A DNA stretch of 64,000 nucleotides from Hormiphora californensis (GCA_020137815.1 CM035359.1:992001-1056000); one strand, 5' to 3'. Counted from the first letter of the stretch, positions 1,261 through 63,670 are shown. Numbers and translations: made by a program. Notes: generated from the sequence alone by a model not told the origin.

Positions 1261-2646
1261 ATGGTGTCTACATTAAGAAGTGGGAATGCGTTTTCGCCAT
1301 ACGAACTTCAAACACCACCAAGAGTGTCCCATGGACCCATCCCTATTCAAACACCTAGCCACTTCACCTCGGCCAATCAATGTCTGTGTAATGGAAAGTT
1401 GACAAACAGGACCATGCTGAAGTGCAGTACGTGTAAATCGTGTTTTCATGATGAATGCGTAGGTTTGAAGTCATTAGGTGATCTTCTTACGCCATCAGAC
1501 GATGGTTTGTTCTCTCTTGAGGGCTGGGTTTGCCCAGAATGTATCGTTACGGCCAGGCTACTCCAACCTGGGAGTCCCATCTTTGACGCTATAGCTACTA
1601 AAGCAGCCAGGCTAATAGCAAACACTAGCGGTAAATCATCCGATCCACCCCAAGCTGATTGCACTTTCAACACATCCATGATCAATTCTGCACCACCTAC
1701 TGATGACACTAGTCAGTCTTCATCTCCTTCTACATCCACCACCTCGATCACCGACTCATTTGCATCACAAACGTCTAAAAACATCCCTAAAAATGCTCCT
1801 AACCATGCAGGTACGAGCAACCCGAGAATCATCCCTTCGGCCAGAACACAGCTACCTCCGCAACCACGCCTCACTGTGCACTGTGATGACGTTCCTGAAA
1901 CTAGAAAAAGCATTGATATGGCCCTAACAGACATCCCCATCGCAAATGTGAGAAACTTCTCATCTTCTATCAAACTCTGGTTCCCAAATGAAAAGTCCCA
2001 AGAACTTGCCACACTCAAACTGAAAGAAGCGGGTGTTCTCCAAAATACTACCAGAATATCTGATCTTGTCATGTCAAAGGTGACACTGCGTTTTGTTCCA
2101 GTTGACCTTCTACCCACAGATGCATCGCCCGAAGACTCTCGAAAGTTCTGTCTCGACAAACTTAGGGCAAAAAATGATCTCCTGAAAAGTTGTTCTGACC
2201 TCTCAATTGTTTATTTTAAACGAATGCAGTCGGATCCTAATCTTGCAACGGTGGCACTCAAACTCCCTGTTGAACTGAAAGACAAAGTTCTCAGCGAAGG
2301 AAGGGTTTTCTTTCATATGTCATCTGTGAAAGTCTACCATCGTGTGCACATTAAAAGGTGCCCCCATTGTCAAGCTCTTGGGCACTATCCCGACCAATGC
2401 CCAAAACGATTGCATCCTGCTACCTGCATGTACTGTGCTGAAAAACATCCAACAAATGATTGCCCTGTAAAAGAAGACACGGAGAAGCATCAGTGTAAAA
2501 ACTGTCTACATTCCAGTCGTTCCAACCCAGATATCCCAGTCCACCATGCTGGTTCATCAAAATGCCCCACCTATAAAGAACAGTACGACAAGCTGTCAAA
2601 AAACTACCGTCTTCGCAGCTCCCTGCACTCAAATATGGAAATCTAA
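1261..2646 (+). CDS. LINE ORF1: PHD finger, RRM-like region, three C-terminal zinc knuckles
   Basis: PHD: CLC...CSTCKSCFHDEC...WVCPEC. Knuckles: CPHCQALGHYPDQC, CMYCAEKHPTNDC, CKNC..HHAGSSKC. First ATG at 1261. Confidence 0.85.
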   Translation: MVSTLRSGNAFSPYELQTPPRVSHGPIPIQTPSHFTSANQCLCNGKLTNRTMLKCSTCKSCFHDECVGLKSLGDLLTPSDDGLFSLEGWVCPECIVTARLLQPGSPIFDAIATKAARLIANTSGKSSDPPQADCTFNTSMINSAPPTDDTSQSSSPSTSTTSITDSFASQTSKNIPKNAPNHAGTSNPRIIPSARTQLPPQPRLTVHCDDVPETRKSIDMALTDIPIANVRNFSSSIKLWFPNEKSQELATLKLKEAGVLQNTTRISDLVMSKVTLRFVPVDLLPTDASPEDSRKFCLDKLRAKNDLLKSCSDLSIVYFKRMQSDPNLATVALKLPVELKDKVLSEGRVFFHMSSVKVYHRVHIKRCPHCQALGHYPDQCPKRLHPATCMYCAEKHPTNDCPVKEDTEKHQCKNCLHSSRSNPDIPVHHAGSSKCPTYKEQYDKLSKNYRLRSSLHSNMEI

Positions 2647-2810
2647 ACTGCCGGTCGATGAATAACAAGCTCATTGACATCTTTGAAACATTCCATGACC
2701 TTGGTCTTGATGTGCTTGCCTTGACAGAGACCTGGCTAGAAGATGGTGACGTTGTTACTCCTGGAGTGATGAAAGAGCTCGGGTTCAACCTCTACAGCTC
2801 TCCTCGATGA
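2628..2810 (+). pseudogene. N-terminal stump of ORF2 apurinic endonuclease
   Basis: Translates LKYGNLNCRSMNNK...LDVLALTETWL...YSSPR* (APE motifs NxRS and TETWL), then stops. Confidence 0.8.
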
Positions 2811-2829
2811 ATTAGCCCCAGTTGAGGAG

Positions 2830-4866
2830 ATGACTGTTAAAGAATCAGAAAATCCACCCTGGTACACTAAAGAGTGTGTTGATGCCAAACGAACTCGCAG
2901 AAAATACGAGAGAGCGTTCAAAACTGCCCTTAAGAAAGCTAAGAAGAAATCGGACTACAGCGATGCATGGATAGCCCTGAAAAACTTCACCGATGAAACT
3001 TCTAGGTTTATTACGAAAACCAGAGTATCCTACTACCGTGAAAAACTGAAACTGGTGGCTGACGATCCAGCAGCGGTAAGCGGTATCATAAACAAGCTTC
3101 TTGGTAAAGACAAGATCCCTCAGGAACTACCAAGTGAATGGTCGGATGAAGAAGCAGCGAACAAATTTAGTGCTTACTTTAAATCAAAGATCGAAAACAT
3201 CTATGAGATGATTAAAGTCGAGAAAGCACTTAATGGATGTGTTCCTGACCTTTCCGGGGAAACCACCTTTAAAGGAAATTCCTTCTCCTCTTTCAAGAAA
3301 GTGAGTGATGAGGATCTCACTGCTATTATAACGTCGATGAGCAAGAAGCACTGTGATCTTGATCCGATCCCTACTCGAACTCTAGTTGGACTCTTACCTC
3401 AACTGTTACCTATTATATCTGACATTGTCAATGGAAGCCTTCAAGAGGGAAGATTCCCTGAAATGCTGAAACAATCCCTGGTTAGGCCATCTTTCAAGAA
3501 AAAGGACAGTCCCGAGGATATGAAGAATTACCGTCCTGTTTCTAATCTATCATTCATCTCGAAGATCATCGAGAAATGTGCGGCGGCCCAATTAACTGAG
3601 CATCTGGAGGAGAATAAGTTGTTTCCAGGAGTGCAATCAGCATACAGAACACATCACAGCACTGAGACCACTCTTGTGAAAGTAGTCAACGATCTCCTAC
3701 TAATCACTGACGAGAAGTCCAAAGCAATCCTAGTACTTTTAGACTTGAGCGCTGCTTTCGATACCATCAATCACAAGATACTCCTGGGGAAGCTGAAAAG
3801 GAACTATGGTGTGACAGGGACTGCTCTCTCCTGGTTTGAGTCCTACCTGACGGACAGAAAGGCCTCGGTGAAAGTTGGAAACTCGACCTCATCGCCAGTG
3901 GCTATAACCATCGGAGTTCCTCAAGGATCCATCTTAGGGCCCCTGTTGTTCGTTCTCTATACCAAAGAACTTGAGAGTATTGCTAAGCACTATGGTTTAC
4001 TAGTAGAGCTGTATGCTGACGATACGCAGCTTTATGTTTCATTTACCAACAACAAACTGGCTGACTTGGAAAAGACACTTCAGGAATGTCTCAACCATAT
4101 CAAGGTGTGGATGGCAGACAACTTTCTTCGACTAAATCCTTCGAAAACTGAATTCATCGTTCTTAGAAACAAACACGACAAAGAAGCGAATCCAGAAGCT
4201 ATAAAAGCGCTAGACGACCAAGATCCATCTGTTCCAGCCCCACTGGTGCGAAACCTTGGTGTTTTCCTTGATTCGGAGCTTTCACTAACTGGAAACGTTT
4301 CAAAAACGGTAAGAGCATGCAATCTGTGTCTCCTGAATCTTTGGAAGATAGGGAATACACTAACTATTGACCTCAAAGTGAAGCTAGTAAACACCCTTGT
4401 ACACAGTAGGCTTGATTACTGCAATAGTCTACTTGCGGGAGCATCTGCTAAAGACCTCGGGAGGTTACAAAAGGTTCAAAACGCTGCCACAAGATTCATC
4501 ACTGGACGCCGATCTCTTCATAGCACATCAGACATTCGAAGACAGCTTCATTTTCTACCGGTTAAGGAAAGAATTAACTACAAGCTATGCTTATTGACCT
4601 ACAAAGCCCTAAACGGTCTAGCACCGACGTATCTTTCTGAACTGGTACAACGTCGGAAGCACAAGCTGAAGAATCTCCGGCGTGATATGGACATAACATA
4701 TCTTGAAAGGAAATACACCCGTTATTGCTCGAGCAAAGGAGCCTTTAGTGTCGCTGCACCAGCAGTGTGGAACGACCTGCCGAAACTTCTACGTGAAAAT
4801 ACATCTGTCCTATCCTTTAAAGCCAACCTAAAGACTCACTTCTTCAAAAAAGCCTACAAATGTTGA
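2830..4866 (+). CDS. LINE ORF2 reverse transcriptase portion (L2/CR1 type)
   Basis: NYRPVSNLSFISKIIE, QSAYRTHHSTET, LLDLSAAFDTINH, GVPQGSILGPLLF, YADD, LNPSKTE, SRLDYCNSLL. Confidence 0.93.
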   Translation: MTVKESENPPWYTKECVDAKRTRRKYERAFKTALKKAKKKSDYSDAWIALKNFTDETSRFITKTRVSYYREKLKLVADDPAAVSGIINKLLGKDKIPQELPSEWSDEEAANKFSAYFKSKIENIYEMIKVEKALNGCVPDLSGETTFKGNSFSSFKKVSDEDLTAIITSMSKKHCDLDPIPTRTLVGLLPQLLPIISDIVNGSLQEGRFPEMLKQSLVRPSFKKKDSPEDMKNYRPVSNLSFISKIIEKCAAAQLTEHLEENKLFPGVQSAYRTHHSTETTLVKVVNDLLLITDEKSKAILVLLDLSAAFDTINHKILLGKLKRNYGVTGTALSWFESYLTDRKASVKVGNSTSSPVAITIGVPQGSILGPLLFVLYTKELESIAKHYGLLVELYADDTQLYVSFTNNKLADLEKTLQECLNHIKVWMADNFLRLNPSKTEFIVLRNKHDKEANPEAIKALDDQDPSVPAPLVRNLGVFLDSELSLTGNVSKTVRACNLCLLNLWKIGNTLTIDLKVKLVNTLVHSRLDYCNSLLAGASAKDLGRLQKVQNAATRFITGRRSLHSTSDIRRQLHFLPVKERINYKLCLLTYKALNGLAPTYLSELVQRRKHKLKNLRRDMDITYLERKYTRYCSSKGAFSVAAPAVWNDLPKLLRENTSVLSFKANLKTHFFKKAYKC

Positions 4867-5996
4867 AGGCCCCATTTCCAATATGAAACAAGGACATTGT
4901 GACAGAGTGATGTGTATGAGTATATGTAATGTGTGTAGCGTGAACAAAGTGAAGCTGGAATGGTCAGTATTTACTTTTTCCTCTCTTTCCTCTATCCTCT
5001 AAACTGACCCTTACTGCTAATGATTGGTTTGTTTATTTTGTAACATTTGATATCAAAAGGGAAAAAAAAGAGAAAAAAAAAAAAAAAAAAAAAAAAAGAA
5101 CAACAACAAAAAAGCGAGAAAAACGTGTGAATATAAAAAACATCCCAAAAAAAAAAGAAAAATAAAAAATAAAAAAAAAAGAAAAAAAAAAAAAAGAAAA
5201 AAAAAGTTGTTCTAAAAAAAAAGAAAAAAGAAAAAGAGAGCTTGCGAGAAAATAGAATGATATGTGAGGACTTGTAAGTGTTAAAGCAGTCGGCAAGTGG
5301 CTTCTACTACTCCAAGTTGGTCAACTGAATTACTGGAAATTGGAAATGCTACATGATACATCTTCTTCAAGTATTCTATGTGCAACTTCGCACACAGGTT
5401 TCAGTATAGGTATCCTAGTATCAATATCCCCGATAGGGGCGGTCTTCAATTTGCTTCTTTTGGATCTTTTAGATCCTTGAATATCATGTGCACTACTGCA
5501 TTTTCTGCAGTGATAGGATCTCCTAAATTATTTTCTCAACCTTTCAAATATATTAACAAAACATCTTTCAGAACATAAGAAAAATCATAATCTTGTAGTA
5601 AAACTAGCCGCTTTTGGAGCGAGGGCTGTTGGGGATGAAAGAGGATGGAATGATGAATTTTTCTTCTTCCAACAGCAGAACTTGTGCTGAACCGTAAAAC
5701 GGACAGTTAAAGAGCGGACTATAAATGTTTATTTTGTATTGTTGTATTGTATTGTATTCCTACCTCAGTAGCAAAACTACTCCCCCGATACTGCTTTGCA
5801 GGTTCGCTGCTCCTGCAGGCATACAGATACTAATTGTTGAGTAAATACTATCTGGTTGAATAACAATTTCAAGATCTAGATCTTGAAACTTGAAACTTGA
5901 AACTTGAAAATAAATTGAGGCTATCAAACAAATGACCACCTTTCAACTCAACTGTCCTTTCCTCGCTCACCACTTCTAAACTCAACAAATTTAATT

Positions 5997-7016
5997 TCAA
6001 TTCTCAGTAGTCCCTGGTGCTTCTACCACCTCCTTCCCACGAATGAAGTAGTGTTTTCCAGGAGACCTTTGAACCATTTCCTTCAGTCGATGAACAAGCT
6101 GTTTTCTCTCATTTCGTTCCTCCAAAGTCCTGTCAGGCGAAATGTAGACTTTATCGAACTTGCCGGTCCTTTTTAGTCGGGATTTTTTCGACAGGATCGA
6201 CATCTGAGCGTCTCTGCTCTTCAGTACGACTTTCACTGGTCTGACAGTTAAAGACTGCCTTCCCATGCGCTCCACTGATTTCACGTTCTGAGTTTCTCCT
6301 AGCTCAACAAGAAGAGACTCAACTTGAGTTTCAAGCTCTACGCTACTATTTATTGACTCTTCCAGGCCATGGATGATGATGTTGCAACCACGGTCTTCAG
6401 AGGCTGCCACAATCGCTGATTGAATCTTCCTTGGAGCCAGAGCCGAGGCACATTCTTTCTCCAAAACGGATGCGAAGCTTTTCAATTCTTGCTGTGCCGT
6501 TGACTGCACAGCTGTAATCTCAACCTCCCTCTTCTCAAGCAACTGCCTCTGGATATTGAGTAGTTCCTCTTGTGCTGCTACGAGGTCTCGTTGAGCTTTA
6601 ATTAGCTCCTTTCCATGTTGTCTGAGCTCCTTTTCGCACTCTCTCACCATCATACTTTCAGAACCCTTGTCACGCAACTTTTCAATTAGTGGAAATGTCT
6701 GTTCAAGAAAAATACCACACGCCCTCTTAGTAAAATCTAAAAGCTTTTTCTTCGACAGCGTATTAAGCTTGCTCGCAGACGGAACCTCTAAATCATCCCA
6801 GGTAGACCTTGGTGGAGGACCAGTTCCATATCTCACTGCCTCTGGGTTACTGTATCCAAACCCTGAACAATCCGACAACAAGTCTTTTACCCAATATACT
6901 GTATCACTTTGGCAGTCGTTGACATTCCTCCTATCAATATCAGTAGCCGGTTTCCCAGGATGAGCTGTCAGGTAAATCCGAGGAGTTGCTTCTTCTTCAT
7001 TATAAGTATTTACCAT
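5997..7016 (-). CDS. Intact stand-alone LINE ORF1-like protein (coiled coil + RRM-like + CTD), 339 aa
   Basis: Heptad coiled coil (ELRQHGKELIKAQRDLVAAQEELLNIQRQLLE), then NIIIHGLEES...ERMGR...RPVKVVL...VYISPDRTLEERNERKQL, typical of CR1/L2/L1-type ORF1. No ORF2 follows. Confidence 0.75.
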   Translation of the reverse strand: MVNTYNEEEATPRIYLTAHPGKPATDIDRRNVNDCQSDTVYWVKDLLSDCSGFGYSNPEAVRYGTGPPPRSTWDDLEVPSASKLNTLSKKKLLDFTKRACGIFLEQTFPLIEKLRDKGSESMMVRECEKELRQHGKELIKAQRDLVAAQEELLNIQRQLLEKREVEITAVQSTAQQELKSFASVLEKECASALAPRKIQSAIVAASEDRGCNIIIHGLEESINSSVELETQVESLLVELGETQNVKSVERMGRQSLTVRPVKVVLKSRDAQMSILSKKSRLKRTGKFDKVYISPDRTLEERNERKQLVHRLKEMVQRSPGKHYFIRGKEVVEAPGTTEN

Positions 7017-7062
7017 TTTCTTTCTGCCCCTCGTGGGCTGTTACATCAGCTTTATCCTAAAA

Positions 7063-7105
7063 CTCAAATTAATTTGTTTAAAGTAGTGTTGAAAAGTTTG
7101 AAACT
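7063..7105 (-). other. Ctenophore spliced-leader exon sequence fused to the 5' UTR of the ORF1-like gene
   Basis: Minus strand reads AGTTTCAAACTTTTCAACACTACTTTAAACAAATTAATTTGAG, matching the Pleurobrachia/Hormiphora SL as I recall it. It is followed by TTTTAG rather than a GT donor, so it is not an SL RNA gene. Confidence 0.85.
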
Positions 7106-7859
7106 AAAATAAACCTCCGATATTTTTAATCCCTACTACCCTCCACCCGCCCCGAACCGCCCCGCCCACCACCAATATATACATACTAAACAATACTGTG
7201 GACTGAGAACAAATCCTTGCTAGTTCAGCCTTCTAACCTAATCGGAATTAATTGGTCCTAATCAGACAGATAGGTCTCACATTACACATATACGTACAAT
7301 ACCCGTCCTGCCACTTATACTATATAAACCTACCATATGCCAGACCAATTCAAGATAATATAATACTATAATAATGAAACCCCAAACACCTAATATGCGG
7401 GTGACCTAAAATCCTAAAAACGGAGGCAAAACCTCGTACAATAACCTATGTAAAACGATAATAAACCACACCGCGGTAGCTATCAAGTTAATCGAGACAG
7501 CTCAAGACTAGAAGAACTCATCCCCGCCTGTCGCAGTGTGATAGAGTCAAAGATCCAAGACTCAGGAAAGAAGAACCAAGATCCTGCGACTCTCTCTAAG
7601 GAGTTTAGCCTCCCGAACCCGAAGCCACCTATAATGGAACCTGTCCTGTGGTCAGTTCCTGATGGTGGGGGAGGGGAGGGGGGCTATTCTCCTAGTGCCG
7701 GCGAAATCGCTTTGCGATAGTCCCTTGTGGGCTTGCCGTTGGCAGGCCCAGGCACTCCGTAGATAGATAGATAGAACTATCACTATTTTAACTTAACGCT
7801 ATTCAAAATGCACCGTAAGGAGCGGAGAAAATTGGAAAAATGACATCAGACGCCCGAAA

Positions 7860-9381: not shown

Positions 9382-41011
<31,630 letters not shown>

Positions 41012-50725: not shown

Positions 50726-63670
<12,945 letters not shown>

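Follow-up and report, generated by a model that had tools for sequence, protein, structure and literature searches.

The window, a 64,000-nucleotide stretch of Hormiphora californensis DNA (GCA_020137815.1 CM035359.1:992001-1056000), carries on its minus strand, at 5884-7105, a 1222-bp insertion in which a complete copy of the host spliced leader (SL) is followed by a short 5' UTR, an intact ORF1, a 3' UTR, and a microsatellite tail. The insertion contains neither poly(A) nor an ORF2. It belongs to a multi-copy, ORF1-only non-autonomous LINE family and is not a lone retrogene, and its class, a leader-headed ORF1-only non-autonomous LINE, is well supported. A partner LINE probably supplied the reverse transcriptase that wrote this copy into DNA, with a leader-spliced RNA as the template. 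ORF1-only LINEs and leader-bearing retrotransposon loci are both already known, and a leader-headed ORF1-only family is a new variation on them.

The leader exon (7063-7105, on the minus strand like all parts of the element) is 43 nt long and ends with AG. It is joined without a leader intron to a 5' UTR of 46 nt (7017-7062), which starts with the hexamer TTTTAG (7057-7062). ORF1 (5997-7016) encodes 339 amino acids, and 82 nt lie between its stop and 5915. The 3' UTR (5910-5996) leads into the tail, (TTTCAAG)x4, which TRF places at 5882-5909 and which reads (CTTGAAA)x4 on the plus strand. The original prediction, made from the sequence alone, had described this intronless order of leader, 46-nt 5' UTR, intact 339-aa frame, and about 80 nt of 3' sequence, together with the lack of poly(A) and ORF2, and each of these parts is seen in the insertion.

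The 43-mer had been described in that prediction as SL-like. Read from 7105 to 7063, it is identical at 43/43 positions to letters 2-44 of the leader printed for H. californensis (PMC8527503). The accessible text of the same paper states that over half of the transcripts start with AG, and reports 718 genomic leader copies in H. californensis and 491 in Mnemiopsis, there without explanation. The contig comparison covered 8 of 22 runs (X1, X4-X8, X11, and X13). Loose contig ends run on from 7063 with a GT donor and from 7105 into one dominant upstream sequence (33 contigs, agreement 0.93). Both observations fit leader-RNA genes, suggesting that the 43-mer is the whole exon. The same leader heads unrelated RNAs in the metatranscriptome run X11 (75 contigs, which cover only about 7059-7105). 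The leader was not found in the genome-contig collection, and the viral-contig collection contained no ORF1 relative, no leader, and no heptamer tail. In runs X1, X5, X6, and X8, many other contigs contain the leader (7059-7105) followed by different bodies; their 5' ends lie at leader positions 1-3 and 7, with many differing flanks. These other contigs in presumed DNA runs are further leader-headed insertions.

The limits of the insertion are given by contigs in which the site is uninterrupted and by alignment with a second copy (L002, described below). Seven contig joints, six in X1 and one in X4, link 5871-5883 directly to 7104-7105 and leave out 1221-1232 bases; the X4 joint (5881 to 7104) omits 1222 bases, and 2 letters fit either side. 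An eighth X1 contig links 5883 to 7123 via a single AAAATAAA, another contig links 5875 to 7107, and X6 shows the same uninterrupted-site joint in two contigs. The uninterrupted site is thus present in 3 runs from 2 samples, in contigs whose shorter side is only 20-24 letters, below the caution limit of 30. It has one AAAATAAA and no heptamer array. The several joint variants suggest that the target belongs to a repeat and that the empty sites may be paralogous and not allelic; these contigs probably derive from other members of the repeat family into which the insertion fell. In two metagenomes, the depth climbs from near zero at the tail bin (from 0.32 to 33.5 in X7 and from 0.15 to 8.21 in X8). 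At the 5' junction (7104-7113), a 2-nt overlap of leader start and target (7104-7105), with an X6 loose end at 7104, precedes the single target AAAATAAA (7106-7113). The two overlap letters, AG on the element strand, fit both the leader start and the tail end, and the last two letters of the tail (5883-5882, AG) are common to tail and target.

Since the empty site has a single AAAATAAA and no array, and since an array of the same kind ends L002, (TTTCAAG)n is the element's own tail and the insertion spans 5884-7105. Such a microsatellite tail accounts for the absence of poly(A). The 3' limit differs from that of the original prediction, which had placed the array immediately outside the element and had proposed an 8-bp target site duplication (TSD) from the occurrence of AAAATAAA at both 5907-5914 and 7106-7113. 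Both 8-mers are present, though their match is partly chance, as 0.9% of 80-nt stretches taken at random from the window contain AAAATAAA. We rejected the TSD because the empty site has only one AAAATAAA and because L002 itself terminates in the homologous A/T stretch and the array; the A/T stretch that had been taken for the 3' TSD copy belongs mostly to the 3' UTR. CR1/L2-group elements typically have a microsatellite tail and hardly any TSD, or none.

LINEs of the NeSL and SLACS/CRE types insert site-specifically into leader-RNA genes, and there the leader belongs to the target gene. An insertion of this kind was rejected, because the uninterrupted site has no leader; the window flank is also unlike the dominant sequence upstream of the leader. 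Further features around the junctions should be noted. At 5867-5888, the target, with TTTCAAG on its opposite strand, and the final tail unit together make a perfect 22-bp palindrome. In its first 8 letters (AGTTTCAA, 7098-7105), the leader is the same as the tail repeat (5882-5909, minus strand) in one register, which may be chance or may reflect a preference of the partner enzyme for priming at leader starts. The insertion landed elsewhere than in front of a leader.

The second SL-headed copy, L002, has the leader at 42/43 positions, the UTR at 46/46, the last 57 nt (5971-5915 in the window) at 56/57, and a heptamer tail. Its upstream flank, of which 52 nt are non-leader sequence, is unlike that of the window. 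The ORF of L002 contains a 1-nt frameshift and shows 69-87% DNA identity to the window ORF1, with a synonymous divergence (dS) of 0.41-0.56. The original prediction had proposed looking for other copies and scoring them for an SL start, a shared 3' end, and TSDs; L002 shares the SL, the 3' end, and the tail, while the TSD is not real in the window copy. The 46-nt UTR is unchanged even though the ORFs differ at 31-39% of synonymous sites, and it could be a promoter, a packaging signal, or another cis element, or could result from a recent exchange of heads. No significant fold was found in the UTR, and no stable RNA fold for the head or the 3' end (z 0.55 to -1.24). The conserved end of the 3' UTR is likely to be the site that a partner reverse transcriptase recognises. 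A homologous UTR is also suggested for subfamilies further removed, from their translations.

Another copy, L001 (54% amino acid identity), is also ORF1-only; it is truncated within the UTR and ends about 190 nt past ORF1 in a (GAT)n tail, indicating that tails differ among subfamilies. Its 3' UTR (L001:1046-1236) is unrelated to that of the window, which suggests tail exchange between partner LINEs. Both fetched loci (2/2, of 142 pattern matches) are without ORF2, and in the window copy, L001, and L002 alike, only about 90-190 nt separate the stop from a microsatellite tail. P0108, a gene model from Pleurobrachia bachei with 84% identity to ORF1, reads through the leader and the UTR start from yet another flank. 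The close ORF1 homologues carry P. bachei labels. The homologue search gave 20 clusters with 97% to 27% identity, and the profile search gave 13,707 relatives at E 0.001. A leader-like translation stands at the N-terminus of 5 of 229 proteins (P0013, P0057, P0066, P0108, and, more weakly, P0226); a sixth pattern match, P0192, was dropped as its motif is internal. P0226, a distant ORF1 relative, begins with FQTFQ and then departs, possibly through a third leader type or a partial leader. One X7 contig spans the leader junction (6909-7092) with 3 differences, having 30 letters on the leader side, one under the 31-letter rule. Homologue contigs are short: 17/17 are under 1.9 kb in one search, and 72/73 of those listed are under 3 kb in another. 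This fits an ORF1-only structure, but weakly, since such collections consist mostly of short contigs.

The ORF1 protein is predicted by its fold to be a type II (L1-like) LINE ORF1. The structure model (mean pLDDT 73, pTM 0.35) has N-terminal helices, a long coiled coil (residues 121-192), an RRM (about 208-295), and a CTD. The ten top-ranked Foldseek matches are without exception human L1 ORF1p (best E 3e-5). A VIA comparison with the L1 RRM (2w7a) gave Z 10.8 with an rmsd of 2.5 over 87 aligned residues, and over the L1 RRM and CTD together Z was 10.4, against 9.2 for the best unrelated RRM. According to the accessible text of PMC4120745, type II ORF1s (transposase 22, CC-RRM-CTD) occur in the L1, CR1, L2, and R1 clades. 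The present protein resembles them in its predicted coiled coil, RRM, and CTD, with human L1 ORF1p as the best structural matches, but differs in having no sequence match in Pfam (nothing above the cut-off) or the PDB (nothing under E 0.07). As type II ORF1s are found in both CR1 and L2 and the element has no RT, ORF1 does not set the clade. The ESM Atlas yielded unnamed clusters only, under 0.9, with Ctenophora as the commonest taxon, which is a lead only. In Rfam, nothing came near a gathering score. Purifying selection acts on ORF1, with dN/dS values of 0.19 in the comparison with L001 and, for the two parts of L002, 0.33 and 0.14.

The relation of the leader to the rest of the element should be considered, since the UTR is as conserved as the leader and leader identity therefore does not by itself demonstrate renewal. 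The leader might have been captured once and be fixed now, with an internal promoter in the leader or the 46-nt UTR and with trans-splicing as no regular part of the cycle. The unchanged UTR and leader across a dS of 0.41-0.56 are what is expected of such a cis-acting head, and a leader-borne promoter has been proposed for dinoflagellate retrogenes in the accessible text of PMC5585692. Two observations speak against this explanation, which we regard as unlikely. One is a variant from which precisely the stretch that separates the leader AG from the AG following it has been lost. Runs X5 and X6, from two samples and two studies, each contain one contig without exactly 7057-7062 (TTTTAG), so that the leader is joined to the base after the next AG. 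Each side of these contigs spans 25-33 letters, with at least one side falling short of the 31-letter rule, and X5 and X6 are only presumed DNA runs. The depths are 461 versus 2933 and 393 versus 1398 for the adjoining full-form contigs, values that are not copy numbers. Alternatively, TTTGAG and TTTTAG are near-repeats, and slippage between them at the DNA level could account for the 6-nt loss.

The other observation is a probable second leader on a related subfamily. P0057 and P0066 (62% identical to ORF1) and P0013 share a 14-residue block, FQTFINYNVKLFIE, whereas the window leader translates in frame as FQTFQHYFKQINL. The block has the same first four codons as the window leader (FQTF) and about the same length, its neighbours differ on both sides, and in P0057 the residues after it are homologous to the translated window UTR. 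Judged from the translations only, the family is likely to carry a second leader type, FQTFINYNVKLFIE; as a gene model, P0013 may include predicted introns. The second leader type was not found printed in the literature searched, and a search with its N-terminus on unrelated proteins gave no match. In the RNA runs X11 and X13, coverage is limited to the leader and does not extend to the UTR and the ORF start.

Together, these two hints lean toward renewal of the leader by trans-splicing, and we consider such renewal fairly probable. A fresh host leader is likely to be gained at least in some rounds. The original prediction regarded TTTTAG as a fresh acceptor that lets the copy be trans-spliced again. 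The variant lacking exactly this hexamer agrees with that idea, and TTTTAG is likely to be a minority second acceptor; most copies keep it, suggesting that splicing would ordinarily use the AG at the end of the genomic leader itself. The broader proposal of a retroposon family with an SL-defined 5' end is supported by L002 in another flank, by P0108, and by the TTTTAG-less variant.

We propose the following cycle. A genomic copy would be transcribed from a flanking promoter or from a putative promoter of its own. To its RNA, a new capped leader would then be added by the host spliceosome. At the AG with which the old genomic leader ends, this would restore the original 5' end; use of the adjoining TTTTAG, which would be rarer, would give the form shorter by 6 nt. 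ORF1p would be translated and would package the element RNA. The ORF2p of a partner would recognise the conserved 3' end and nick the target, and after priming on 2 nt of microhomology, copying would run up to the cap. More tentatively, the family may be promoterless: read-through transcripts would be cut at the old-leader AG and recapped with either host leader type, giving a full-length translatable RNA wherever the element landed, and such copies might then make up many of the hundreds of unexplained ctenophore leader copies. The promoter independence of the element is itself conjectural.

Next, the source of the enzyme and the origin of the ORF1-only form are considered. Other contigs share the 3' end of the element and diverge upstream of 5920, 5927, or 6000 (30 letters displayed). 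Among them, one X7 contig diverges exactly at the ORF1 stop (6000) and is a candidate for the partner. Neither the window nor the viral-contig collection contained another match for the 3' end. The neighbouring LINE at 1261-4866 (plus strand), with a PHD-containing ORF1, an RT frame, and a leaderless 5' end, was rejected as the partner, because it has no leader and does not share the tail; one 13-letter near match to the leader, at 922, is at chance level. A noisy A-rich stretch (5062-5205) lies behind this LINE. The same X7 contig would also fit a repeated origin of the copies as by-products of an autonomous LINE, from whose RNA splicing or deletion removes ORF2, and one of the 73 listed homologue contigs is as long as 5.4 kb. 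That origin is quite unlikely, as copies at a dS of 0.41-0.56 keep the same stop-to-tail layout and as L001 has another tail on a related ORF1. A search of limited power for an ORF2-bearing parent or a longer fused protein found none, which weighs slightly in the same direction. Of the outron form, no loose end behind 7062 was seen among 16 of 81 rows listed, which is likewise a limited sample.

The intact ORF under purifying selection might also suggest a domesticated ORF1 retrogene, as the original prediction offered in the alternative, or a single retrocopy of a host gene. Purifying selection is expected of an active element lineage too, and the many subfamilies, different flanks, microsatellite tails, and frameshifted copy, as well as the site being uninterrupted in other samples, make this reading very improbable. 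That a cDNA molecule was chimerised into the contig during assembly is extremely improbable, even though the junctions of this copy are absent from the listed contigs and its letters include private ones, because the insertion, which lacks poly(A), sits precisely in an otherwise continuous site that it overlaps by 2 nt at each end, and because L002 has the same layout with non-leader flank. The standing of the window copy should be noted here. No contig bridging its own junctions (5884-7105) was present among the matches listed (25 of about 1700 records). At 7004, every contig that covers the position departs from the window, whose letter is private there and nearly so at 6092. From the difference at 7004 and the unlisted junctions, the copy is likely to be absent from those samples. 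Such absence is expected of a young polymorphic insertion; an assembly error is possible.

HAL1 has the poly(A) tail and long TSD of an L1-type insertion, and HAL1 in the strict sense was rejected for the present element, which has a heptamer tail and at most a 2-nt overlap. The accessible text of PMC5786205 lists ORF1-present bipartite non-autonomous LINEs, namely HAL1 (L1 clade), HeT-A (Jockey), and Ag-Sponge (CR1). Like them, the element has ORF1 only, a LINE-type 3' end, and presumably a dependence on a partner enzyme; by fold it has a LINE ORF1 homologue, there is no ORF2 before the tail, and copies stand in different flanks. The difference is at the 5' end, which is a host spliced leader here and a LINE 5' UTR there.

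The element also shares a feature with leader-relic retrocopies, in that its DNA encodes the host leader and this runs straight into the body, with no leader intron between them. In parasitic flatworms, leader-bearing retrotransposon loci have been reported (6 loci in PMC5832876, and 597 loci with partial leaders in PMC12582326). They are alike in having a DNA-encoded leader at a mobile element, which their authors read as integrated trans-spliced RNA. The leaders there are full or partial, assembly chimeras are possible, and the accessible texts describe no ORF1-only family, junctions, or second-round splicing. In dinoflagellate retrogenes (PMC5585692), a leader was likewise written into DNA by retroposition, and the AG inside the leader relic was named as an acceptor for renewed trans-splicing. 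As far as the accessible text goes, host genes are copied passively there and relics pile up, whereas here a mobile family keeps one complete leader. In Hydra (PMC12220107), about 30% of TE long reads carry a leader. TE RNAs of an animal thus make use of the host machinery; this is at the RNA level, and the accessible text describes no genomic leader-headed copies. The literature searched, with most subscription journals and Repbase outside it, gave no report of a leader-headed ORF1-only ctenophore element.

LINEs must rebuild their 5' end in every round, and the promoter of a neighbour is one solution to this problem. Others are internal promoters and ribozymes, as given in the accessible text of PMC5786205. 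A host leader would be another way, and candidate marks of repeated trans-splicing are the form shortened to the next AG and the probable second leader. If true, the proposed cycle would help account for the 718 and 491 genomic leader copies in the two ctenophores (PMC8527503, accessible text). Care is needed in transcript annotation, as mapping leader-headed RNA reads onto such copies makes false shared first exons.

Two other features of the window should be mentioned. C-type-lectin-like ORFs whose N-termini are rich in glycine occur as three tandem pairs at 18134-33007 on the minus strand; the first pair matches Pfam Lectin_C. At 61319-63670 on the plus strand, a long ORF combines an LDL-receptor class A repeat with a rhodopsin-family 7TM domain (Pfam).
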